A stretch of 20,266 nucleotides of DNA, from positions 1 through 20,266 of the forward strand of contig JBHLLT010000039.1 in NCBI GenBank assembly GCA_048938855.1. Direction: 5' to 3'. Of this stretch, positions 19 to 13,610 are shown one piece after another. The translations under genes and the position numbers were made by a program. The notes under the pieces are model-generated. The model was not told the origin of the DNA and did no database searches. It saw only the letters and a program-made list of their open reading frames with translations. The DNA comes from Promethearchaeota archaeon. GTDB lineage: Archaea; Asgardarchaeota; Lokiarchaeia; Sigyniarchaeales; SOKP01. Each line of letters opens with the position of its first letter. Positions within the stretch are counted from its first letter, which is position 1.

Positions 19-1452
19 TTATGAGAGATCTAGTCTTCTTTTATAATTTGATATTTTTGAGAGTAATGGAATAACTTCAAGCGGATCTCCAAAAACAGGA
101 ATACTTCTTTTATTTAACTTATTCAAGATTCTACCCCTTTCTTCAGGACGATTCAAACGTTGAATTATAGGAATTAATGGTTTATGATGTTTATGACCTA
201 AACTTAAAGCCTCTATTATGTTGCTTTCAAATGTGTGATTATCCACTGATTTAAAGACATTGGTTAAATAGAAACTAGGTAAATCTAGTATAAGCCCATC
301 AATAATGTCATCACTTAAAGCAAGATCAATTATTTCATATACTGCATTTTCAGTAAAAAACTGGGCGGCTAAATCTAAAGGATTTCTGGAACTTGTACCA
401 GGTAATATAAATTTAGATTCTAATATCTCTTGAATCTTAGGAGAAAATGGTGGTACTCTAATTCCTTCATTTTCTAGTAGATCAACTAAAATTACACCAT
501 ATCCTCCGCTGATACTAAAGACAGCTATATCATTAATGTCGAAAGCTCCATAGCAATCAATTAAACGAGCGGTATATAACAATTGTTCTAAAGAATTAAC
601 TTGAATCATATTATATTGTTGAAAAAAAGCCTCCCAAATTCTTTTATCTCCAGAAATTGAGGCAGTATGGGTTTTAGCTGCAATAGATCCAGTTTCTGAT
701 TGACCTCCTTTTAAAATTATTATAGGTTTTTTATTTTGATTTAGGACTTTTTTTAATGTTCCAATTCTACCTTCTTTAATACCCTCTAAATAACATAATA
801 TTATTTCAGTTTCTGGATCATTACTCAAAAAATAGAGTAAATCTACAAAATCTAAATCGGCACCGTTTCCAAATGAAAATACTTTTGAAAAATTAATTCC
901 AATCGCTTCTGCTCCATAAATCGCTATATTACAGATTCCACCTGACTGAGCAATAAATCCTATGTTTCCTGCTGTTGTTGGAAATTGTGAACGCCATGCG
1001 ATTCCCTTTTTAGGATAAAAAAGCCCCATTCCATTTGGTCCTAGTATTCTTACTTTATTCTGTGCTCGATTCAATAGTTCTCTTTCTAATTGAATTCCTT
1101 GTTCAGTCCCTGAATCAGAAAACTCAGAAGTAAAAACAGTTGCTAATTTTACCTTTTTTCTTACACAAGAATCTATTATTTTTAGAACTTGAGATGGTGG
1201 GACAGCAATAAAGACAAAATCCACATCTCCAGGGATGTCTTCTAATGTTGGAAAAATGCATTTCATATTAAAATTGGGTATATCATCAATTTTAGGGTGT
1301 ACTGCATAAACTGGACCTTTAAAATATTGTGCATGGTTTCTTAGAAAAAAGTAGTCTCTTTTTTTAGAAAATCCAACAACTGCTATTGATTTTATACTAT
1401 TTATAAAAAAGAGATCTTTAATATTTAATTCTCTAGAACCAATTTTTGACAT
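19..1452 (-). CDS. Acyl-CoA synthetase (NDP-forming) alpha subunit / CoA-binding protein
   Basis: 477 aa. N-terminal CoA-binding fold (SIAVVGFS, VYAVHP, DVDFVFIAVP), RILGPNGMG, IGFIAQSGG, SFGNGADL, ILCYLEG, phospho-His motif AAKTHTASISG, SISGGYG and NPLDL. No ATP-grasp (beta) domain in this ORF. Confidence 0.9.
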   Translation of the reverse strand: MSKIGSRELNIKDLFFINSIKSIAVVGFSKKRDYFFLRNHAQYFKGPVYAVHPKIDDIPNFNMKCIFPTLEDIPGDVDFVFIAVPPSQVLKIIDSCVRKKVKLATVFTSEFSDSGTEQGIQLERELLNRAQNKVRILGPNGMGLFYPKKGIAWRSQFPTTAGNIGFIAQSGGICNIAIYGAEAIGINFSKVFSFGNGADLDFVDLLYFLSNDPETEIILCYLEGIKEGRIGTLKKVLNQNKKPIIILKGGQSETGSIAAKTHTASISGDKRIWEAFFQQYNMIQVNSLEQLLYTARLIDCYGAFDINDIAVFSISGGYGVILVDLLENEGIRVPPFSPKIQEILESKFILPGTSSRNPLDLAAQFFTENAVYEIIDLALSDDIIDGLILDLPSFYLTNVFKSVDNHTFESNIIEALSLGHKHHKPLIPIIQRLNRPEERGRILNKLNKRSIPVFGDPLEVIPLLSKISNYKRRLDLS

Positions 1453-1952: not shown

Positions 1953-4181
1953 ATGAGAAAAAAACTAGTTACAATACTAGTAGTCTTCGCCTTTTTAAGT
2001 GTTGCTGGAGTTACTGTGACGTTTAATGTGACAGGAAATGTCGCACAGGAATATAATGGATATGATATTGAACCAACTAAAGACATGAAAACTGCTGATG
2101 AGTATACACTTGATGGTGTGGAATTTACCCGACCACACAGTCCATGGGACTATCCTACACTTGATGATTACTTAGGTATTCTTGTTTGGCGTGAGTTTGA
2201 TAATATCTTTAACGGTACATATGGAAATATTTGGATTAGTTTAGATCCTGCATATGACGAATATATTGATAATGGTCCCGCAGGATATAGTCCTGAGGAT
2301 ATCTGGGTTTTTGGTTATCCATGGTCTGCTACAGGTTACCCAGATGATAGCTACCCAGGTGGATATTATTTACCTCCAGGGTATAAAGATACTATAACTG
2401 GACAAGACTTATTAGAAGTTTTAAATGAATTCGATACTAACATACATGATACTGATGTGGGATATTTTGGTGAATATGCTGATCGAGCAGGTCCATTTGG
2501 TGATTATAAAGTTCAAATTATGGTATTTAACCTTCGAGATGAATGGTTCTACGATCCTGTAAACGCAGCAGGATTTACTGAAGGATACTTCTGGAGCGCT
2601 ATTGCTAATTGGGGTGCAAATGCATTTCATATGGATACATATCAGTGGTGGAGAAGACAAGGTGGAGATCCACCTATGGTTGATCCTTTAACTGGATATG
2701 ATTATGGCTATCTTAGCGTTAAAGCATGGGAATATGAAGGAACCTTTGCTCACGAATTTCAACACCTTATACACTATGATAGAGACCCTGATGAATTTTC
2801 ATGGGTTAATGAAGGATGTTCAACCTTAGCTGAATGGTTATGTGGATATGGATTCTCACCGGGGCATATTTCAGAATATTTACTTTGGTTTTGGGATACT
2901 CCTTTGACAATCTGGGAAGGATATTTAGCTGATTATGGTGCTTCATTTCTATGGACTTTCTATATGTATCAACATTATGGTGGAGCTTCTTTCTTATGGG
3001 ATCTTGTCCAAGACCAAGCTAATGGAATTGCTGGTTATGAAAATACACTAGCAGCACATCATATCCATAGAACATTCGATCAAATCTTTCAAGATTGGTG
3101 TATCGCAAATTATCTTGATGATACAAGCTTCGGTCATGGAAGATATGGTTACTGGGAATTAGATATTCCCTCTGCAAACTCAGAAGATATGAGCATTCAG
3201 TTATCAATGGAATTATGGGCAACATGGTATGCAGGTACTGGTTTTTTCGATTGGTTTGTAGATGAATATCCATATGAGGGAAGCTATATTCTAGCCGGAC
3301 GTGGTTTACCTTACACTGCGAGCTATGTCAAATTCACCGATATGCCACAATTATTCAAAATTACCTTTGATGGTGATGATTATTGTGGTGCGGCTCCAAC
3401 AAGTGGTACTCATAATTGGTATTCTGGTGGTGAAGCATGGTCATGGTACCAACTTGGTCAGACATTTGATGTTCCTGCCACAGGAGCAACCTTACAATTC
3501 TCTAATTATTTCTCAATCGAATTAGATTGGGATTATGGTTATGTAGAAGTCCATGACCTTACTACTGACGAGTGGACAACACTTCCTGGTCTTATGACCA
3601 CCGACTATCTTGGACATGAGCAAAATAACCCTAATACTCCTAATGAGCGAGAACCAACCACTTATAATGATGCAGGAAAATGGAACTGCTTTACAGGAGA
3701 AAGTAATGGATTATATACTGAAATGATGGACCTTACACCTTTTGCAGGACACACAATAGAACTCTATTTTACATATTGGACTGATGGATATACACTCGGT
3801 TCAGGATGGTATCTTGATGATATTGAAATTCCTGAAATTGGGTTCTATGATGATTGTGAAACTGAAGGTGCTTGGACATTCAACGGATGGAGCTTAAATG
3901 ATGAGATTATTTACAATAATTTTGAAGTAAGCTTCATTACAACCTATACATTAACAAAGAAGAATGGTGCTGTATGGCATATATGGGACAGCATTTCCAA
4001 AATGTGCCTTAACAGTGCTACCGAAGAAGGTATGAAGAAAATTCTTGCCCTTAACAATAAGCGTACCTCAACTGAAGTAGTAATGGTTGTTGCGAACCAA
4101 CCGGGTTATGAACACACCTTTGGAACCAGCTATACTTATACTGCAGGCTCATGGAATTGGCATTGCCACTGGCATAAGTAA
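1953..4181 (+). CDS. Secreted/membrane-anchored zinc metalloprotease, copy 1 (gluzincin, M30-like catalytic domain plus immune-inhibitor-A-like C-terminal beta domain)
   Basis: 742 aa. Signal peptide/anchor MRKKLVTILVVFAFLSVAGVTV. HEFQH (2751-2765) followed by WVNEG as third Zn ligand. The C-terminal IELDWDYGYVEV...DLTPFAGHTIELYFTYWTD...GWYLDDIEI resembles InhA/M6-associated beta-sandwich domains. Confidence 0.85.
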   Translation: MRKKLVTILVVFAFLSVAGVTVTFNVTGNVAQEYNGYDIEPTKDMKTADEYTLDGVEFTRPHSPWDYPTLDDYLGILVWREFDNIFNGTYGNIWISLDPAYDEYIDNGPAGYSPEDIWVFGYPWSATGYPDDSYPGGYYLPPGYKDTITGQDLLEVLNEFDTNIHDTDVGYFGEYADRAGPFGDYKVQIMVFNLRDEWFYDPVNAAGFTEGYFWSAIANWGANAFHMDTYQWWRRQGGDPPMVDPLTGYDYGYLSVKAWEYEGTFAHEFQHLIHYDRDPDEFSWVNEGCSTLAEWLCGYGFSPGHISEYLLWFWDTPLTIWEGYLADYGASFLWTFYMYQHYGGASFLWDLVQDQANGIAGYENTLAAHHIHRTFDQIFQDWCIANYLDDTSFGHGRYGYWELDIPSANSEDMSIQLSMELWATWYAGTGFFDWFVDEYPYEGSYILAGRGLPYTASYVKFTDMPQLFKITFDGDDYCGAAPTSGTHNWYSGGEAWSWYQLGQTFDVPATGATLQFSNYFSIELDWDYGYVEVHDLTTDEWTTLPGLMTTDYLGHEQNNPNTPNEREPTTYNDAGKWNCFTGESNGLYTEMMDLTPFAGHTIELYFTYWTDGYTLGSGWYLDDIEIPEIGFYDDCETEGAWTFNGWSLNDEIIYNNFEVSFITTYTLTKKNGAVWHIWDSISKMCLNSATEEGMKKILALNNKRTSTEVVMVVANQPGYEHTFGTSYTYTAGSWNWHCHWHK

Positions 4182-4619: not shown

Positions 4620-6845
4620 ATGAGAAAAAGACTAGTTACATTACTTATAGTCTTCACCTTTATTAGTGTTGCTGGCGTTACCGTGATGTTTAATGTAACA
4701 GGAAATGTCAAGAAAGAGTATAATGGATACGACATCGCAGCTGTTAATGATTTTAAACATACAAATGAATTTACACTTGATGGTGTAGAATTTACTTATC
4801 CTCACAGTCCATGGTTGTATCCTACCCTTGATGATTATTTAGGTACAGTTGTTTGGCGTGAATTTGATAACATCTTTAATGGAACTCATGGAAATATTTG
4901 GATTACTTTAGATCCTGCATACGATGAATATATTGATCTTGGTCCAGCAGGATATAGTCCGGAGGACATTTGGGCTTTTGGTTATCCCTGGACTCCTACT
5001 GGATATCCTGATTCAGGTTATCCTGGTGGTTACTATTTACCTCCTGGATATAGAGATACAATAACTGGCGCAGATTTGTTAGATCTTCTAGACGAATTTG
5101 ACAGTAATATTCATGAGACAGTTGTGAACAATTTTGGTCATTATGCTGATCGAGCAGGTCCTTTTGGTGATTATAAAATCCAAATTATGATATTCAACCT
5201 TCGGGATGAATTTTTCTACTCTCCGCTTACGGCTCCTAGCTATACTGCTGGTTATTTCTGGCCTGCTATCGCTAATTGGGGCGTTAACGCATTCCATATG
5301 GATACATATCAGTGGTGGAGAAGACAAGGTGATAATCCACCTATGATTGATCCTTTAACTGGATATGATTATACTTATCTTAGTGTGAAACCAAATGCGT
5401 ATGAAGGAACTTTTGCTCATGAATTTCAACATCTTGTCAATAATGATGTAGATCCGGATGAATATTCATGGGTTGATGAAGGTAGCTCAGATTTGGCAAT
5501 ATATCTCTGTGGATATGGGTTTGCACCTGATCATATTTCAGAATATTTGCTTTGGCACTGGGATACTCCATTGACTATTTGGGAAGGTTATTTAGCTGAT
5601 TATGGAGCATCTTTTCTGTGGACTTTCTATATGTATGAACATTATGGTGGTGCTGATTTGATACGGGAGTTCTGTTATGAACAAGCTAATGGAATCGAAG
5701 GTTGGAATAATGTACTTGCGGCTCGTGGTATACATAAAACGTTTGATCAAATCTTTCAAGATTGGTGTATCGCAAATTATTTGGACGATACATCCTTCTG
5801 TCATGGAAGGTTTGGCTATTATGCATTAGATATACCATCTGATAACTCGGAAGGAGAAAGTATTCAAGCCTCAATGGAATATTGGTATGATTTATATGGA
5901 GAGTATGGCTTTTTCGATTGGTTTGTAGATGAATATCCATATGAGGGTAGTTATATCCTTGTTGGACGCGGTTTACCTTATACTGCAAATTATGTCAAAT
6001 TCACTGATATGCCACAATTATTTAAACTTACCTTTGATGGTGATGATTATTGTGGTGCTGTACCGACGAGTGGTAGCCATAATTGGTATTCAGGTGGTGA
6101 ACAATGGTCATGGTACCAACTTGGTCAGACATTTGAAGTTCCTGCTACAGGAGCGACTCTACAATTTTCAAATTATTATTCAATTGAATTAGATTGGGAC
6201 TATGGTTATGTAGAAGTCCACGATCTTACTACTGATGAATGGACAACGCTTCCTGGTCTTACTACTACCGACTATCTAGGGTATGAGCAAAATAATCCAA
6301 ACACTCCCCTTGAACGAGAACCATCAACCTATAATGAGGCTGGAACGTGGAATTGCTTTACAGGAGACAGTAATGGATTATATACTGAAATGATGGACCT
6401 TACACCTTTTGCAGGACACACAATTGAACTTTATTTCACATATTGGACTGACGCATATACACTTGGTTCAGGTTGGTATCTTGATGACATTGAAATTCCT
6501 GAAATAGGGTTTTATGATGATTGTGAGACTGAAGGTGCCTGGACATTCAATGGATGGAGCTTAAATGATCAGATTCTTTATAACAACTTTCATGTAAACT
6601 TCATTACAACCTATACATTAACAAAGAGGAATGGTGCTGTATGGCATATATGGAACAGCATTTCCAAAATGTGCATTAACAGTGCTACCGAAGAAGGAAT
6701 GAAGCGAATTCTTACCCTTAACAATAAACGTACTTCAACTGAAGTAGTAATGGTTATTGCAAACCAACCGGGTTATGAACACACAATTGGAACCAGCTAC
6801 ACTTATACTGCAGGCTCATGGAATTGGCATTGCCACTGGCACTGA
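4620..6845 (+). CDS. Secreted/membrane-anchored zinc metalloprotease, copy 2 (tandem paralog)
   Basis: 741 aa, collinear with copy 1. Signal peptide, HEFQH (5418-5432), WVDEG and the same C-terminal domain. Ends WNWHCHWH-TGA-TAA. Confidence 0.85.
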   Translation: MRKRLVTLLIVFTFISVAGVTVMFNVTGNVKKEYNGYDIAAVNDFKHTNEFTLDGVEFTYPHSPWLYPTLDDYLGTVVWREFDNIFNGTHGNIWITLDPAYDEYIDLGPAGYSPEDIWAFGYPWTPTGYPDSGYPGGYYLPPGYRDTITGADLLDLLDEFDSNIHETVVNNFGHYADRAGPFGDYKIQIMIFNLRDEFFYSPLTAPSYTAGYFWPAIANWGVNAFHMDTYQWWRRQGDNPPMIDPLTGYDYTYLSVKPNAYEGTFAHEFQHLVNNDVDPDEYSWVDEGSSDLAIYLCGYGFAPDHISEYLLWHWDTPLTIWEGYLADYGASFLWTFYMYEHYGGADLIREFCYEQANGIEGWNNVLAARGIHKTFDQIFQDWCIANYLDDTSFCHGRFGYYALDIPSDNSEGESIQASMEYWYDLYGEYGFFDWFVDEYPYEGSYILVGRGLPYTANYVKFTDMPQLFKLTFDGDDYCGAVPTSGSHNWYSGGEQWSWYQLGQTFEVPATGATLQFSNYYSIELDWDYGYVEVHDLTTDEWTTLPGLTTTDYLGYEQNNPNTPLEREPSTYNEAGTWNCFTGDSNGLYTEMMDLTPFAGHTIELYFTYWTDAYTLGSGWYLDDIEIPEIGFYDDCETEGAWTFNGWSLNDQILYNNFHVNFITTYTLTKRNGAVWHIWNSISKMCINSATEEGMKRILTLNNKRTSTEVVMVIANQPGYEHTIGTSYTYTAGSWNWHCHWH

Positions 6846-6996: not shown

Positions 6997-7938
6997 TTGG
7001 ATAATCAAGAGATGGATGTTCAAAGAAAACTCTCTGAATTAAGAGCAGATAATTCATCAGGAGCAAGTGAATTAGTTTTTAAAGCTTTAGAAATTGTGAA
7101 ATCTCAGTTAGAATTAATTGAAGATCCAAATGAAAATATCGAAGATTTAATAATTGATTTAGCTAAAGAAATTATTGACTCACGTCCTACAATGGCCCCT
7201 CTAATTAACACTATTGGATGTATTCTTCAAAATTCAGTACCTCTCAATAAGAATACAATAAAGAAGAGTTTGAGGCAATTTGAAACAGATAGGATTTCTA
7301 GGAATAGAGCTCTTGAAGAATCGTTTCACGAATTTTTGAATTTATATGCAAAATCTCACTGTAGATTAATGCTTATTTCATATAGCTCTACAATTGTCAA
7401 TCTATTAAAGAAATTTAACAAATTTAATCTTGAAATATACGTTCTCGAATCGAGACCTTTATTTGAAGGACGAAAAACTGCTGAAATTTTGTCAAAATAC
7501 TTTAAAACTCATCTAATAATAGATGCTGCTATGGGAAAATTTATTGATCAAATTGATTTAGTGTTAATTGGAGTTGATAGTATCTTAGAAGACGGATCGA
7601 TAATTAATAAAATTGGGAGTCATCCTTTAGCATTATTAGCAGAAATTTATAAAAAAAAGGTTTATGCAATCTGCGATACTTTTAAGTATAACTTACGAAG
7701 CCATTTTGGATACCCAATTTTAATCGAAGAGAAACCTTCTGATGAGATTTATAGTGAAGAATTATTTAATGGTTTATTGGAAGTTCATAATTATTATTTT
7801 GATATTACAAGCCCTAAATATCTCTCAGGGATTATTACTAATCTGGGAGTATTAAGTGTTAAAGATTTTCTGAAAAAAGTACAACAAGATTTACCAATCG
7901 ATTGGTTTAAATATTTTATACATAACAAAAAGATATGA
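6997..7938 (+). CDS. Translation initiation factor eIF2B subunit-like / sugar-phosphate isomerase (IF-2B family) protein
   Basis: 313 aa (start may be ATG 7012). Motifs DNSSGASEL, SRPTMAPL, SYSSTI, ESRPLFEG, LIIDAA, LIGVDSILEDGSIINKIGS and NYYFDIT are typical of the IF-2B family. Confidence 0.85.
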   Translation: MDNQEMDVQRKLSELRADNSSGASELVFKALEIVKSQLELIEDPNENIEDLIIDLAKEIIDSRPTMAPLINTIGCILQNSVPLNKNTIKKSLRQFETDRISRNRALEESFHEFLNLYAKSHCRLMLISYSSTIVNLLKKFNKFNLEIYVLESRPLFEGRKTAEILSKYFKTHLIIDAAMGKFIDQIDLVLIGVDSILEDGSIINKIGSHPLALLAEIYKKKVYAICDTFKYNLRSHFGYPILIEEKPSDEIYSEELFNGLLEVHNYYFDITSPKYLSGIITNLGVLSVKDFLKKVQQDLPIDWFKYFIHNKKI

Positions 7939-9185
7939 TTTTAAAATCAAAAATGAAGCTTCAAGAATTAAATGAAAAAATAGCAAATAAAACATTTATT
8001 AATAAGAACCTTGATGCAGATAATGCTTATAAAATAACAGAAAGACTAGCATTTCCTCGATTAGTTGGTTCAGAAGGCGAAAAAAAAGCTATAGAAATTG
8101 TGTTAGAGGAGTTCAAGAAAACAGGGTATAATCTAATATATAAAGAAAATTTTAAAACTTCCCTTTATCTTTGGACTGTATTAAGGTATGCATTTATTCC
8201 TATGAGTTTATGTCTAATCTTTCTATCTATTTCGTTTTTCATTAATCCATGGCTTACCTTAGGATCAATCTTGTTGAATATATATGTTTGTGCAAAAATT
8301 CTTGGATTAGCAACTTCAGGCGAAACAAGATTATTTAGAAATGATCAAAAGAATTTTACTACTCAAAATATTTATACTGATTTGAAAAGCAAAAATTCAA
8401 AAGCAAAAGTAATTTTTTTGGGACATTGGGATTCGAAATCGCAAACTTTTCCTTCTAACATAAGAATACTTCTATTTATAATTACTCTTTTTAGTTTTAT
8501 AATAGTTATTCTTTTATATCTTGTCTTTTCGATTATTCAATTAATATTTCCATTTAATAATTTGATACTAAGTAATGTATTGCTCTACTTTTGCATCGCA
8601 ATTAGTATAATTAGTAATTTTAATTATTTTAATAAAACAAAAAATAAATCTCCTGGGGCATATGACAATGCAGCAGCTGTAGGAGCAATTATTGAGCTAG
8701 CTAGATTTTATAGAAACAATCCTATAAGCAATATTGATTTTATATTTTTATGTCCTAGTTCTGAAGAATTAAACCTAGCAGGGGCAAAACATTTCATTCA
8801 AAACCATAAAAATGAATTTGATAAAAATTCAACTTATTTTATTAATCTTGATCCAATTGGAGGAAATGAATTAATAAGATTAATAACTTCTTTTGGAATT
8901 CCTCGTAAATCTTCTTCTCATAAATTAAATAAATTATTTATGAAGAATGCTAAAAAGTTAAAAATTAATATAAAAGATATATATCTACCTACGGGGATGT
9001 GGTCTGATTATATGCCGATTGTTGAAGAAGGGTTTGAAGCATGCTGGCTTGGTTCTCAACCCGGATTAAAATATGTGCATACAAAGAAAGATAATATGGA
9101 ATTAGTCTCAAAGGAAGGAATAAAAAATATCCTCTTTTTATGCACAGCTGTAGTAAACGAATTGAACAATGAGTTAGATTTATAA
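7935..9185 (+). CDS. M28-family metallopeptidase with inserted transmembrane hairpins
   Basis: 416 aa. PRLVGSEGE, GHWDS, GAYDNAAA, SSEE, INLD, SDY and HT metal-ligand motifs. Two hydrophobic helix pairs at about aa 78-125 and 177-230. Start overlaps the upstream stop (ATGA); an alternative ATG is at 7953. Confidence 0.85.
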   Translation: MILKSKMKLQELNEKIANKTFINKNLDADNAYKITERLAFPRLVGSEGEKKAIEIVLEEFKKTGYNLIYKENFKTSLYLWTVLRYAFIPMSLCLIFLSISFFINPWLTLGSILLNIYVCAKILGLATSGETRLFRNDQKNFTTQNIYTDLKSKNSKAKVIFLGHWDSKSQTFPSNIRILLFIITLFSFIIVILLYLVFSIIQLIFPFNNLILSNVLLYFCIAISIISNFNYFNKTKNKSPGAYDNAAAVGAIIELARFYRNNPISNIDFIFLCPSSEELNLAGAKHFIQNHKNEFDKNSTYFINLDPIGGNELIRLITSFGIPRKSSSHKLNKLFMKNAKKLKINIKDIYLPTGMWSDYMPIVEEGFEACWLGSQPGLKYVHTKKDNMELVSKEGIKNILFLCTAVVNELNNELDL

Positions 9186-9246: not shown

Positions 9247-9311
9247 ATAATAAGCATAACTTAATTTTTATTCTAAAATTTAATTAAATGAAATTTATTT
9301 TATAAAAAATA

Positions 9312-10316
9312 TTGAGTTATATTAAGATGTTAACTCCAGAACAAATGAAAGAAATTCTAAAAGAAAATGTAATTAATCTAAGATTTCACGCTCGTGGCGG
9401 TCAAGGAGGAGTAACTGCTTCAAATCTCTGCGTTGAAGCTTTTTATGGGTATGGAGTATGTCAACCCTTATTTGGAGCAGAACGTATGGGATCTCCTACT
9501 GAGAGTTATGTTAGACTTAGCGCAAATGAAGAATTGGTAAGAACTAATGAACAAGTTTATGCACCGCATGCAGTAGCAGTACTCGATCCCTCTTTATTGG
9601 GTGAAATTGATGTTACTGCGGGACTAGCACCAGGAGGGTGGTTGATAGTCAATACAACCTTGGATCAAATATCCCTCCAAACTGTAGTTGGCAGAAAAGA
9701 CATTAATATCGCTACTATAGATGCTCTAAATATTGCAATGGAAATTCTTGGAAGAAATATTACCAATACAATCATTCTTGGGGCTCTATTAAGGGTTATC
9801 CCAATTTTTTCTATGGATGCATTAGCAGATGCCATAATGCGTCGATTTAAAGGAGCGATAGCCGGGAAGAATGCGGAAGCTATTAAGCGTGCTTTTGAAG
9901 AAACTTGTATATATGAAACTCCTAGTGCTCCAGAGTTGGATTTCACTGTTGATACTAAGATACCATGGCAACAAGTCAATCCTGGTTTACCTGGATTAAA
10001 AGAGTTAGATGATGCAGGTGTATGGTACTGTGACGAAGATGTTATAGAAATTGGCAGCAAACAAGTAAATACAGGTTCTTGGGGTGAATGGGATATGATT
10101 TGGGATGAAGAAAAATGTACCGATTGTGCTCAATGTTGGTATATTTGCCCTGATTTTACAATTATAAGAGAACAGGGTGAAGATGGATTATGGCATATGA
10201 AAGGTATTGATCAATCTCATTGCAAATCATGTCAAAATTGTTTAGAGATTTGTCCTGTACAAGCAATTACTAAAAAACTTAAACAAGGTCCGGCTGCATG
10301 TGCCGCACCTGAATAA
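9312..10316 (+). CDS. porC: Pyruvate/2-oxoacid:ferredoxin oxidoreductase gamma-delta fusion (PorC + PorD)
   Basis: N-terminal gamma motifs LRFHARGGQG, FGAERMGSP, VAVLDPSL, IDALNIA and NTIILGA. C-terminal delta with TGSW and two ferredoxin motifs, CTDCAQCWYICP and CKSCQNCLEICP. TTG start; ATG 9327 is possible. Confidence 0.9.
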   Translation: MSYIKMLTPEQMKEILKENVINLRFHARGGQGGVTASNLCVEAFYGYGVCQPLFGAERMGSPTESYVRLSANEELVRTNEQVYAPHAVAVLDPSLLGEIDVTAGLAPGGWLIVNTTLDQISLQTVVGRKDINIATIDALNIAMEILGRNITNTIILGALLRVIPIFSMDALADAIMRRFKGAIAGKNAEAIKRAFEETCIYETPSAPELDFTVDTKIPWQQVNPGLPGLKELDDAGVWYCDEDVIEIGSKQVNTGSWGEWDMIWDEEKCTDCAQCWYICPDFTIIREQGEDGLWHMKGIDQSHCKSCQNCLEICPVQAITKKLKQGPAACAAPE

Positions 10317-10330
10317 AGGAGGGAAATATT

Positions 10331-11560
10331 ATGAGTATAGAACCAATGAGAGTATTTTTTAAAGAAATTAAAGAACCAATAGAAACAACCATGATTGGAA
10401 ACTATGCCGTTGCTGGGGGTGTAACTCAGACAGATCCCGATGTAATATGCGCTTTTCCTATTACTCCTCAAACTCAATCTGTGGAAGGATTGTCAGATGT
10501 TGTTCATCATGGTAGATTAAAAGCAGCATTTGTAAATGTAGAATCAGAATTAGCAGCTATAAGTTTTTCGACAGCTGCATGCGCTGCAGGAGCAAGAGCT
10601 TTTACCGCTACAGCAAGTCAAGGTTACTTACTAATGACTGAAGCACTTCCCATGGCAGTTGGTTGGAGACTTCCTTTAACCATGATGATTTCTGCCCGAG
10701 CTTTTAACTCTCCTAATCTATCGATTTGGAATTCTTGGGAATATACGCAAGTGAATTCTGAACTTGGTTGGAATATAATAGTATCAGAAAATGTCCAAGA
10801 AACCTATGATGCAGCAATCTTAGCTGTAATGATTTCAGAAGAATCACTATTTCCAACCATATTTGTACATGATGGTTTTATAATTTCTCATTCAGTTCAA
10901 AAATTAACTTTAATTCCAGATGAAATAGTTAAAAGAATGACTCCAAAAAAACCCAGACATACTATTGATCCATCAAAACCAGGAACTTGGGGTGGAATAG
11001 TAACTCCATCTTACTTTATGGAGGGCAGGGCAAATCTAGAAGAAGCCAAAAAACCAGTTTTAGGTCAAATGATTGACGTTTTCAGAAAATTTAAAGCAGA
11101 AACTGGAAGAGATTATAATTTGATTGAAACTTATAATTTAGACAACTCCTCTAGAACTGCTTTTTGTACTATGGGGTCGATGAGTGGAAATATTATAAGT
11201 TGGATGACTAAAAATAAGGATATTGGCTTAATTAAAATCAGAGCATATCGTCCATTTCCATATCAAGAGCTCCGTAGAATCGTGGAAGAACATAATTTAG
11301 AAAAATTAATTCTTTTAGAGAAGAGTGATTCTCTGAATGGGTTGTTACCACCCTTTTCAATGTCAATTGCTTCTGCCTTATATCCTTTAGGAACTATTTT
11401 TAGAAGTTTTATTGTTGGTTTAGGTGGAAGAGATGTTACTCGAGATGAATTTGATGTAGCAAAAAAGAAAATGGAATCTGTGACAGATATGAAAGGTCAA
11501 TTATATCAATATCTAGGAGTCCGAGAAACCAAACAAAAAATTTCAGGGGTGAATCAATAA
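10331..11560 (+). CDS. porA: Pyruvate/2-oxoacid:ferredoxin oxidoreductase alpha subunit
   Basis: AFPITPQT, VESE, RAFTATASQG, DGFIISH, IRAYRPFP and GLGGRD. GGAGG ribosome-binding site upstream. Confidence 0.92.
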   Translation: MSIEPMRVFFKEIKEPIETTMIGNYAVAGGVTQTDPDVICAFPITPQTQSVEGLSDVVHHGRLKAAFVNVESELAAISFSTAACAAGARAFTATASQGYLLMTEALPMAVGWRLPLTMMISARAFNSPNLSIWNSWEYTQVNSELGWNIIVSENVQETYDAAILAVMISEESLFPTIFVHDGFIISHSVQKLTLIPDEIVKRMTPKKPRHTIDPSKPGTWGGIVTPSYFMEGRANLEEAKKPVLGQMIDVFRKFKAETGRDYNLIETYNLDNSSRTAFCTMGSMSGNIISWMTKNKDIGLIKIRAYRPFPYQELRRIVEEHNLEKLILLEKSDSLNGLLPPFSMSIASALYPLGTIFRSFIVGLGGRDVTRDEFDVAKKKMESVTDMKGQLYQYLGVRETKQKISGVNQ

Positions 11561-12649
11561 GTGTCTAAACCAGAGAGAAACATTATTAATTTTGATGATA
11601 TTTTAGCTAGAGATGAAAAATGCAATGTGCTATTTTTCAACTATGATAATGAAGCTTTTATGAATACTGGGATTCAAGAAAGTGGAGGTACACCTCCTTA
11701 TGCTTCTACGACTACAGGTCCTGCAGGAGATAAAATTCCAGGTAAAATAGGTGTAAAACAAGATTTAGTAACTCCATTTGCTTTCTATGGAACAAAAAAA
11801 TTATTCCTAGCTACTGTAAATCCAGCATATCCAAATGATTTTATGGGCAAAGTAGCAGATGCACTTAAATCCAATGGCTCTGCTTTCATCCAAGCATATT
11901 CTGATTGTATGAGAGGTTGGAGACATGAAGCCTCTGATGCCTTGAAAATTTCAAAGTTAGCAACTGATTGTGGATATTGGCCACTTTATACAGTGAGAGT
12001 TGAAGATGGTGTCCCTATTTTTACATATTATCGTGGATTAGATATTGATAAAGATAAGTTTATTGAGTATCTTAAATCCATGGGTAAATTTAGGCATTTA
12101 TTTAAACCCAAATTTATGGAAAAGGAAATCGACGAGATAATTTACCTTACAGAACGACGTAATAACAAAATAAAAGGCTTATTAGAGAAATTTGGAGCTG
12201 AAAAACTTGTAGATGTTTATAGGATTAATCGTAAAAAACTGCAACCACAAATCCATTTACAACCAGGTCATGGTTTATGTCCTGGATGTGGAGCGGGGAT
12301 GGTTTTGAATCAAATGGCAACTGCTGCAACTGCTGTTGCTGATAGGAACATAATATATGTAAATAATACTAGTTGTTCAGAAGTGTCAACTTCAAAAGAT
12401 AACGTAACTTCTTGGAATGTTCCATGGGTACACCATTTATTTGAATCTGGCGCAACTGTTGCCGAAGCTATTTCAACCGCTAAAAAGATAATGAAAGCAA
12501 AAGATCTCTATAATTATGAGATACCTTGGGTTATCCATATAGGAGGAGACGGTTCTACATACGACATAGGATTTCAATTTCTCAAAGCAGCGCTCATTAG
12601 AACTAGCAGTTTTGTTGAAATGAATGAATATTTGAAAAATCAAAAATAA
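11561..12649 (+). CDS. porB: Pyruvate/2-oxoacid:ferredoxin oxidoreductase beta subunit, circularly permuted
   Basis: All PorB motifs are present in swapped order: YDNEAFMNTGIQ (aa 28-39), SDCMRGW (C116) and GYWPLY come first, then GHGLCPGCG (C240, C243), TSCSEV (C272), PWVHHLFE and GGDGSTYDIGFQ (aa 328-339). The GTG start abuts the porA stop, with GGGGTGA upstream. Confidence 0.9.
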   Translation: MSKPERNIINFDDILARDEKCNVLFFNYDNEAFMNTGIQESGGTPPYASTTTGPAGDKIPGKIGVKQDLVTPFAFYGTKKLFLATVNPAYPNDFMGKVADALKSNGSAFIQAYSDCMRGWRHEASDALKISKLATDCGYWPLYTVRVEDGVPIFTYYRGLDIDKDKFIEYLKSMGKFRHLFKPKFMEKEIDEIIYLTERRNNKIKGLLEKFGAEKLVDVYRINRKKLQPQIHLQPGHGLCPGCGAGMVLNQMATAATAVADRNIIYVNNTSCSEVSTSKDNVTSWNVPWVHHLFESGATVAEAISTAKKIMKAKDLYNYEIPWVIHIGGDGSTYDIGFQFLKAALIRTSSFVEMNEYLKNQK

Positions 12650-12683
12650 AATTTATTTTATTACTTTTTTCTTTTTGTTTAAA
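12650..12683. terminator. T-rich terminator region between convergent genes
   Basis: T runs on the + strand immediately after the porB stop. Confidence 0.45.
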
Positions 12684-13610
12684 TTAATTTTCTTCTATTT
12701 TAAGATATGGTTTCCTCTTGTATTGTGCGTGATACAGTTCACAACGAATTGAATTTCTGATTATATATCCACTTGTTTGGAAAATCGAATCTTCCAGAAT
12801 AAAATCATAATACATTGATGCCATACACGGATAAGAATAATGAGCTTTATTGATTTCCTCCATTAGGTAAAAATCATCTTTATATTCTTTATTAAAGCAT
12901 TTTAGTTTCAAATTTTGTATAATAAAGTTAGTTGAACCACATGGAGCACTCTGTATTACACATGCGTCTTCTATTGATCTACCATCATTACTCATTAATA
13001 TAGATATAATTGGCACTCCTATTCCAAAATAATCTATGAATTCATCTACATAATGCCGTTCTTTTGTTACATGAAATCCTGCTTTATTGTATTGATCTTC
13101 CTCTTTACTTAGCGAACAGAAAGGTTTAGGAAATGCTGCTTGAATATTATATTGGTCAAATTCAAATATAAGTTTCACTTGAAGTTCTGGTGTAACCCAT
13201 TTTGGATTCTCAATTGGTATAATTACTGCTTTCACTCCTTTATCTCGTAAATATTTTGGTAATTTTTCAAGTAAAAAAGAATTGATTCCTATCACCAATA
13301 GAAAGTCAATAGATGGTATTTCTTCTGATAAAAGATTGAAATCATCTCCATCAATCTTATTAGAAGCACTTGGAACTTTAATATAAAAATATATTTTACT
13401 AGCGTGATTCTTTAGATATTTACGACATTGTATACAATTTGATTTTTGGTTTAGAATTTGGCAAGCATTACAAAATTTCAAGTCATTAATTAAATGTCCA
13501 ATGAATTTCGATGCCAATTCTTCTATTTCCGGGTCTTTACCATATAAAACTCCTAACTTATAGCCCTTTTCATATAACTTAGATTCGACTTTTAACAAAT
13601 TTTCTTGCAT
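12684..13610 (-). CDS. DUF166-like protein with Cys cluster
   Basis: 308 aa. AVIIP, FPKPFCSL, FGIGVP, SAPCGST and HYSYPCMASM match my recollection of the archaeal DUF166 family. Extra N-terminal CNAC-x8-CIQC. Confidence 0.72.
   Translation of the reverse strand: MQENLLKVESKLYEKGYKLGVLYGKDPEIEELASKFIGHLINDLKFCNACQILNQKSNCIQCRKYLKNHASKIYFYIKVPSASNKIDGDDFNLLSEEIPSIDFLLVIGINSFLLEKLPKYLRDKGVKAVIIPIENPKWVTPELQVKLIFEFDQYNIQAAFPKPFCSLSKEEDQYNKAGFHVTKERHYVDEFIDYFGIGVPIISILMSNDGRSIEDACVIQSAPCGSTNFIIQNLKLKCFNKEYKDDFYLMEEINKAHYSYPCMASMYYDFILEDSIFQTSGYIIRNSIRCELYHAQYKRKPYLKIEEN

Follow-up and report, generated by a model that had tools for sequence, protein, structure and literature searches.

Described Relatives of the Locus

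The closest described systems are three kinds of 2-oxoacid:ferredoxin oxidoreductase (OFOR), and we compare with them a gene from a Promethearchaeota archaeon of the class Lokiarchaeia (order Sigyniarchaeales, assembly GCA_048938855.1). The analyzed stretch of DNA, further referred to as the window, comprises all 20,266 nucleotides (nt) from position 1 to 20,266 of contig JBHLLT010000039.1, and the gene, predicted to encode an OFOR beta subunit, occupies 11561..12649 on the plus strand. Its nearest described relative is PorB of the four-subunit archaeal enzymes, for instance that of Methanosarcina acetivorans (9bt4, chain C; NCBIfam model NF008819), which is homologous to the new subunit in both halves (E 8e-46 overall). 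Like PorB, the new subunit has the GDG...DNE...NTG residues of the site for magnesium and thiamine diphosphate (Mg-ThDP), four cluster cysteines, and a gene position after the alpha gene; its structure model appears to have the PP-domain fold (Z 12.4 to PorB), and the modelled pairing with the alpha subunit is supported. Unlike in PorB, the two halves of the protein stand in swapped order, and a leader of 22 amino acids (aa), about 11 joint residues, and a tail of 15 aa are added. Further, the gamma and delta subunits, separate in the four-subunit archaeal system, are fused in the Lokiarchaeia operon.

In this last respect the operon resembles the oxalate oxidoreductase of Moorella thermoacetica (5c4i, 5exd, and 5exe), a three-subunit enzyme in which a gamma-delta-type subunit is likewise fused (match of NF045790 to aa 57-321). 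The beta subunit of the oxalate enzyme is also homologous to the new one in both halves (E 1.3e-40), but it has the canonical order and scores lower in sequence comparison than PorB does, and the enzyme does not use coenzyme A (CoA). The third relative is domain VI of the single-chain pyruvate:ferredoxin oxidoreductases (PFORs) of Desulfovibrio africanus (1b0p) and Moorella (6cin), which has the same ThDP and cluster residues and which the first half of the model resembles most closely in structure (Z 14.0), but which forms part of a fusion protein of about 1,200 aa and has the canonical order.

Rearrangements are known in ThDP enzymes at the level of whole domains: the PYR and PP domains follow each other in a different order in transketolases and in decarboxylases. 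Both there and in the Lokiarchaeia subunit the same cofactor modules are laid out anew, but in the latter the cut lies inside the PP domain and passes through the ThDP/Mg motif. No description of a permuted PorB was found in full-text searches of the literature on circular permutation in OFORs, PFORs, and thiamine enzymes and in Lokiarchaeota. The initial annotation of this stretch, which knew of no such report, therefore appears to be right in this respect, and the permuted PorB represents a topological variant, apparently not yet published, of an enzyme subunit that is otherwise well known.

Swapped Halves of the Beta Subunit

The gene starts with GTG and is translated in an uninterrupted frame into a protein of 362 aa. 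We conclude that its product, whose single PP domain is circularly permuted, very probably functions as the beta subunit of an OFOR of the POR/VOR class encoded by three genes (gamma-delta, alpha, and beta). Comparison with the sequences of PDB chains by phmmer yields two local matches to PorB, in which aa 226-347 correspond to positions 3-115 of 9bt4_C (independent E-value 1.3e-16) and aa 23-193 to positions 119-282 (3.5e-26). The beta chain of the oxalate oxidoreductase, 5c4i_C, gives the same two-piece swapped pattern. A hidden Markov model (HMM) built from 72 canonical beta subunits also splits the protein, with aa 21-215 matching HMM positions 124-306 and aa 227-352 matching positions 8-127, and it finds two swapped pieces in all 75 permuted sequences to which it was applied. 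Thus the two matches in reverse order that the initial annotation had expected from an alignment to PorB were obtained with each of these references. Similarly, NF008819, the PorB model, assigns 202 bits to the protein (its cut-off is 405); this match is divided into two swapped stretches and is not collinear over the full length, and the only Pfam match is to the last half of TPP_enzyme_C (aa 17-111, 25.6 bits).

The chain begins with a variable leader (aa 1-22; 11561..11626), which has no significant match to canonical beta subunits; N7 and I9 in it are nearly invariant, and AlphaFold2 (AF2) predicts a strand at aa 6-10 and a helix at aa 11-15. The leader is followed by a piece that corresponds to the C-terminal half of canonical beta subunits (aa 23-193, PorB 119-282; 11627..12139), which contains Y28-D29-N30-E31 (11642-11653), N35-T36-G37, and, within a CxxGW motif, C116 (11906-11908). 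A joint then connects the old C-terminus to the old N-terminus (aa 194-232; 12140..12256), with a long helix at aa 187-211 and a strand at aa 212-221 in the AF2 model. The initial annotation had placed a linker at about aa 205-235; a linker does exist, but these limits do not hold, as the joint spans approximately aa 194-232 and only about aa 216-226 are without a counterpart in canonical beta subunits, as judged by the canonical HMM. The former N-terminal half comes next (aa 233-347, PorB about 10-115; 12257..12601) and contains G236-H-G-L-C240-P-G-C243-G, T270-S-C272, G329-D330-G331 (12545-12553), and the D335-I-G helix. Finally, there is a C-terminal tail (aa 348-362; 12602..12646), whose SSFV aligns to the same canonical positions as the CNVL of the N-terminal part. 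All these features lie on the plus strand. The residues named earlier, that is, NVLFFNYDNEAFMNTGIQ at aa 22-39, C116 in SDCMRGW, PGHGLCPGCG at 12263-12292, TSC272, and GGDG at 12542-12553, agree with the DNA.

The breakpoint of the permutation falls between the helix after GDG and the strand carrying DNE. It separates two residues of one ThDP/Mg motif, D330 of GDG and N30 of DNE, which are now 300 residues apart and in reversed order. The chain runs from the DNE...NTG beta-strand to the old C-terminus, through the approximately 11 new residues to the old N-terminus, and ends just past GDG and its helix. In the folded protein, the Mg-ThDP site would be assembled from both ends of the chain, with N30 and N35-T36-G37 contributed from near the N-terminus and D330 from near the C-terminus, and the ligands of the proximal [4Fe-4S] cluster would be C116, C240, C243, and C272.

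Conservation and Distribution of the Permuted Gene

In an alignment of 75 permuted sequences with 52-89% identity, all the predicted ThDP/Mg residues (Y28-D29-N30-E31, N35-T36-G37, and G329-D330-G331) are invariant, as are the cluster cysteines C116, C240, C243, and C272, each of which aligns to a PorB cysteine. G119-W120, T270, D335-I-G, and R347 are invariant as well. The gene is under purifying selection, as the ratio of nonsynonymous to synonymous substitution rates (dN/dS), estimated by the pairwise Nei-Gojobori method between the gene of the window and its counterparts in four close relatives, is 0.042 overall. It equals 0.030 in the C-terminal-derived piece and 0.034 in the N-terminal-derived one, 0.117 in the leader, and 0.078 in the joint; the lowest value of any region, 0.013, is that of the tail (aa 348-362), estimated from few pairs.

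A word-indexed search of 5.8 billion proteins matched 193 protein clusters from independent assemblies, among which the full-length ones are about 360 aa long, cover the whole query collinearly at identities down to 55%, and originate from NCBI, JGI, ENA, and Logan assemblies. When 1.84 billion cluster representatives were searched exhaustively with HMMER, there was one full-length collinear cluster (P0121) accompanied by fragments, and every other match consisted of two stretches. Further, among the top 150 representative clusters scored with the canonical HMM, no other permuted family was observed, P0121, the permuted family of Lokiarchaeia, being the only one with swapped halves. A scan of species-representative genomes produced 139 loci, mostly labelled Promethearchaeota or Promethearchaeia, and these include a locus on the closed chromosome CP070831.1.

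The permuted beta gene is present in 120 of the 151 sampled Lokiarchaeia genomes (about 80%), in seven families, with 52-96% identity. This prevalence is a lower bound, as some genomes that seem to lack the gene have the alpha gene, yet true losses occur too. For instance, of five such genomes examined, two (G210 and G174) possess the alpha gene, which in G210 is situated at the very end of a contig; in genomes of this type the beta gene may be unassembled rather than lost. Of 201 genomes sampled across the phylum, full-length matches were confined to the window's order, whereas approximately 155 genomes from its other classes contained no detected permuted gene and gave only half-length matches in the canonical order. 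The suggestion that the permutation could be a lineage marker is supported by this distribution, and the search for the same gene order in Asgard and other genomes thus found it in Lokiarchaeia and in none of the other sampled classes of the phylum.

Several record labels seem to disagree with the placement of the sequences. An 83% identical copy resides on a contig (DATKTW010000155.1) labelled "Candidatus Nanopelagicaceae bacterium", which is probably mis-binned, and six copies with 81-96% identity (L039-L041, L056, L085, and L104) carry the labels of Hermod-, Hod-, Odin-, or Thorarchaeota. An apparent 715-aa alpha-beta fusion in one genome (G153, contig C34; L015:2098-2201) was rejected, as it contains a run of N representing a scaffold gap.

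Phylogeny and Likely Substrate

For phylogenetic analysis, permuted sequences were cut at the breakpoint, rejoined in the canonical order, and placed in a tree with 72 canonical beta subunits. The 14 de-permuted sequences form one clade (100 in the Shimodaira-Hasegawa-like approximate likelihood-ratio test), located beside canonical beta subunits of other Asgard classes, and the permuted family has a single origin. The permutation would have occurred once, in the ancestor of Lokiarchaeia, and in place within an operon of the porCDAB type. The neighboring canonical Asgard subunits score higher with PorB than with VorB models (e.g., 399 vs 338 bits) and belong to gamma, delta, alpha, beta operons. 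In contrast, the two other OFOR beta subunits of the source genome (contigs C79 and C81) are canonical in order and belong to the opposite half of the tree; of the two, one is VorB-like (393 vs 361 bits), and the other is effectively tied (384 vs 383.5 bits). Neither a single-chain PFOR nor another PorB-like beta subunit was found in the source genome, and all three subunits encoded by the operon score best with NCBIfam POR models. Since its nearest canonical relatives are PorB-like, the permuted enzyme is most likely the pyruvate-type OFOR of the organism. We suggest that, as the only PorB-like OFOR found in this genome, it probably carries the conversion of pyruvate to acetyl-CoA in a fermentative ferredoxin-based metabolism. 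The reaction would have the usual chemistry, in which a 2-oxoacid, most likely pyruvate, CoA, and oxidised ferredoxin are converted to acyl-CoA, CO2, and reduced ferredoxin.

Several observations speak against this assignment. The permuted clade is set apart by a long stem (0.93 substitutions per site); every subunit scores below the NCBIfam PorA/PorB/PorC equivalog cut-offs; the alpha subunit of the operon is the most divergent of the three in the genome (290 bits with PorA_Arch vs about 407 for its paralogs); and at least three near-complete relatives lack the whole operon, so that the enzyme is dispensable in some species. Given the divergent alpha subunit and the long stem, the substrate or properties of the enzyme may have changed. 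The same four observations favor the reading in which the protein is conserved but its function is not, so that it acts on another 2-oxoacid, or differs in cofactor exchange, oxygen tolerance, or direction of the reaction, and is not the pyruvate:ferredoxin oxidoreductase of the cell. We consider such a change rather unlikely, as the nearest canonical beta subunits are PorB-like, the two other OFOR operons lean toward VorB (one of them marginally), the genome search yielded no other candidate for a pyruvate enzyme of the PorB or single-chain type, and the catalytic and cofactor residues of both the alpha and the beta subunit are unchanged.

A related and somewhat speculative suggestion, to which we assign a low probability, is that the permutation is not neutral. 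With both ends of the chain placed at the Mg-ThDP site and the alpha subunit rapidly diverging alongside, the enzyme might have acquired a changed substrate range, an altered loading or exchange of the cofactor, or an assembly swapped between two beta subunits. If true, the closest cultured relatives of eukaryotes would possess a class-specific adaptation of their central carbon and electron metabolism.

Origin of the Permutation

The two pieces matched by the canonical HMM overlap by a median of four HMM positions (range -1 to 9) in the 75 sequences; SSFV of the tail and CNVL of the N-terminal part both align to "hdil" of the HMM. The joint thus consists of the old C-terminal tail, about 11 residues, and the old N-terminus, with overlapping ends, as a head-to-tail tandem fusion followed by truncation would leave it. 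The most likely route would be a tandem duplication, an in-frame fusion, and the loss of the outer halves; such an origin is likely but unproven. Its evidence is thin, as the overlap is short, and the leader and the tail alone have no significant relic homology (hhalign E 0.13 and 0.064, respectively, to other regions). A search for longer forms, for instance fusion proteins or intermediates with two beta copies in tandem, gave nothing at E 1e-20, which is weak evidence of their absence. We also considered the leader as a relic of the helix after GDG, on which aa 11-23 could be lined up by eye and with phmmer against 1b0p, and the tail as a relic of the DNE strand; this was rejected, as the comparison to the canonical alignment by hhalign was not significant and pointed elsewhere.

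The lack of significant relic homology in the leader and tail also fits a route in which the beta gene was split, perhaps at the site of an intein or another mobile element in the ThDP motif, and its parts were re-fused in reverse order. In line with such a fission, canonical relatives have inteins at three sites of the ThDP motif, one of which (...TYV|C...) is within approximately four residues of the breakpoint. However, neither split beta genes nor intein remnants were seen in Lokiarchaeia, the leader and tail contain no intein motifs, and the composition of the joint and the overlap of its ends are those that a head-to-tail fusion leaves. We therefore regard fission as quite unlikely and tandem duplication with truncation as the better account.

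The inteins themselves, with Intein_splicing and LAGLIDADG_3 domains, were observed in the nearest canonical relatives, the PorB-like clusters P0125, P0133, P0149, and P0140, the last of which has two. Their three sites in the ThDP motif are GDGG|C...N|SYDIG, ...TYV|C...N|CYDNE, and YMN|C...N|TGIQ, the middle one being that closest to the breakpoint. Beyond the shared preference of mobile elements for conserved motifs, there is no evidence linking these inteins to the breakpoint.

Structure Models

The AF2 model of the permuted beta subunit, based on the alignment of 75 sequences, is a single compact domain with a predicted TM-score (pTM) of 0.88 and a mean predicted local distance difference test score (pLDDT) of 83. 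The confidence is low only at aa 32-40 and 238-242 (pLDDT <50), exactly where the loops for the cofactor and the cluster lie; this counts against the proposed site, though it is expected of a prediction made without cofactors. VIA-align matches the model to PFOR domain VI with Z 14.0 (189 residues) and to 9bt4_C with Z 12.4, covering about 185 residues. The TM-score of 0.44 obtained with Foldseek for the comparison with 9bt4_C is not an argument against the fold, since sequential aligners cover just one half of a permutant. Both homology and the compactness of the model suggest that D330 and N30 would converge at the Mg-ThDP site.

The two-chain model of the alpha and permuted beta subunits reaches an ipSAE of 0.82 in three runs, compared to 0.00 for the best of three controls. 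Of 80 solved complexes, 58 attain this mark, as do 2 of 110 mismatched pairs. At least 94% of contacts are common to the runs, the partner pLDDT is at least 85, and the score may owe in part to the likeness of the subunits to solved OFORs. The modelled interface involves beta residues 262-347 and, in the tail, residues 354, 358, and 361. The C-terminal tail may thus have gained a role in the subunit contact.

Since OFORs are dimers and both free ends of the chain are at the cofactor, a ThDP site could in principle combine GDG from one beta chain with DNE from the other across the dimer. Such domain swapping seems highly improbable, given that the single chain already yields a compact and confident model, that the alpha and beta subunits are modelled one-to-one with a well-predicted partner, and that about 11 extra joint residues suffice for a single chain to bridge its old termini. 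The alternatives of a faulty assembly and of a gene in decay are already refuted by the occurrence of the same order in 193 clusters and in 120 genomes from many studies, closed chromosomes included, and by a dN/dS of 0.04, an uninterrupted frame, and a conserved start. The view of the initial annotation that the gene is a functional permutant and not a decayed gene is thus supported by the low dN/dS, the invariant cofactor residues, the compact and confident model, and the supported interface of the alpha and beta subunits in the complex model.

Operon and Genomic Context

The first gene of the operon (9312..10316, plus strand) encodes a fused gamma-delta subunit, composed of a POR gamma domain and a ferredoxin domain for two [4Fe-4S] clusters with the motifs CTDCAQCWYICP and CKSCQNCLEICP. 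It is recognized by the Pfam family POR (4.8e-26) and by Fer4 families, both CxxCxxCxxxCP motifs are present, and among NCBIfam models it scores 149 bits with PorC_KorC TIGR02175 (cut-off 81) and 57 bits with PorD_KorD (cut-off 60). The translation more likely starts at ATG 9327 than at TTG 9312 chosen by the open reading frame lister. An A/T-rich TATA-like stretch, TTTATTTTATAAAAAA, is located at 9296-9311, upstream of this ATG, which suggests a short or absent leader.

The second gene (10331..11560, plus strand) encodes the alpha subunit of 409 aa, with a PYR domain and domain II, and has an AGGAGG Shine-Dalgarno sequence 8 nt before its ATG. The product matches POR_N (2.9e-55) and PFOR_II (3.8e-11) of Pfam and PorA_Arch of NCBIfam (290 bits, under the cut-off of 550), and it retains PITP, ESE (E71-S72-E73), and R113, positions shared with canonical alpha subunits. 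The gamma-delta and alpha genes are separated by 14 nt and the alpha and beta genes by 0 nt, as the alpha stop codon TAA (11558-11560) directly adjoins the GTG of the beta gene, which is preceded at a distance of 8 nt by the Shine-Dalgarno-like GGGGTGA (11546..11552, plus strand). In relatives, the homologous start codon of the beta gene is ATG in the same GGGGTGA/ATAA context. The order of the gamma-delta, alpha, and beta genes is also kept in two relatives (L006 and L007, 61% and 55% identity), where other neighbors differ. Thus the normal operon position and good ribosome-binding site previously noted for the gene are found both in the window and in its relatives.

Downstream of the beta stop codon, a T-rich stretch (12650..12683, plus strand) probably acts as an archaeal terminator; it precedes a convergent gene of the Pfam family DUF166 (12684-13610, minus strand). 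The window further contains an ADP-forming acyl-CoA synthetase-like gene with CoA_binding_2 and Succ_CoA_lig domains (19-1452, minus strand), two paralogous genes of 740-aa InhA-like peptidases with MAM domains (1953-4181 and 4620-6845, plus strand), and an M28 peptidase gene (7935-9185, plus strand). This neighborhood of peptidases and an acyl-CoA synthetase would fit a fermentation of peptides and 2-oxoacids; it is not common to the two relatives mentioned above.

Candidate Mini-Introns in Relatives

The permuted porB genes of five relatives from three genera have hairpin inserts of 30 or 31 nt, which introduce a stop codon or a frame shift (L016:741-1856 in G273; L017:721-1839 in G283; L018:673-1527 in G295; L034:358-1462 in G019; and L033:391-1516 in G272). 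Four of the inserts lie within the I38 codon just after NTG (NTG|IQ), and one is 7 nt downstream. The insert of L033 forms a textbook bulge-helix-bulge, consisting of an outer helix of 7 bp, a central helix of 4 bp (UCCA/UGGA), and an inner helix of 9 bp, with the bulges AGG (3 nt, 5' strand) and AAAA (4 nt, 3' strand); the other four have a relaxed bulge-helix-bulge, and their inner stems covary. When both bulges are cut in silico behind their second base, NTGIQESGG and the full-length frame are restored in four copies; the L018 copy reaches the contig end. These inserts are probably tRNA-type mini-introns in an mRNA. A translated insertion, selenocysteine recoding of TGA, and ribosomal bypass were rejected, as two of the inserts are 31 nt long and shift the frame, the stems covary at the RNA level, and there is no matching landing codon. 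The beta gene of the window itself has no hairpin insert.

Implications

The permutation described here splits the cofactor motif that is the signature of a ThDP enzyme, occurred in nature, and has been kept by selection. It therefore informs both on the tolerance of the PP domain to breaks and on the engineering of such enzymes. There is also a consequence for annotation: the listed permuted beta subunits are named "hypothetical protein" in NCBI and OFOR beta subunit in JGI, and the former label is explained by the swapped order, due to which the subunit escapes pipelines that rely on models. As a result, the pyruvate:ferredoxin oxidoreductase can be scored as incomplete when the metabolism of Lokiarchaeia is reconstructed. 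Finally, the permuted porB gene is a clean rare genomic change that marks one class of Asgard archaea.

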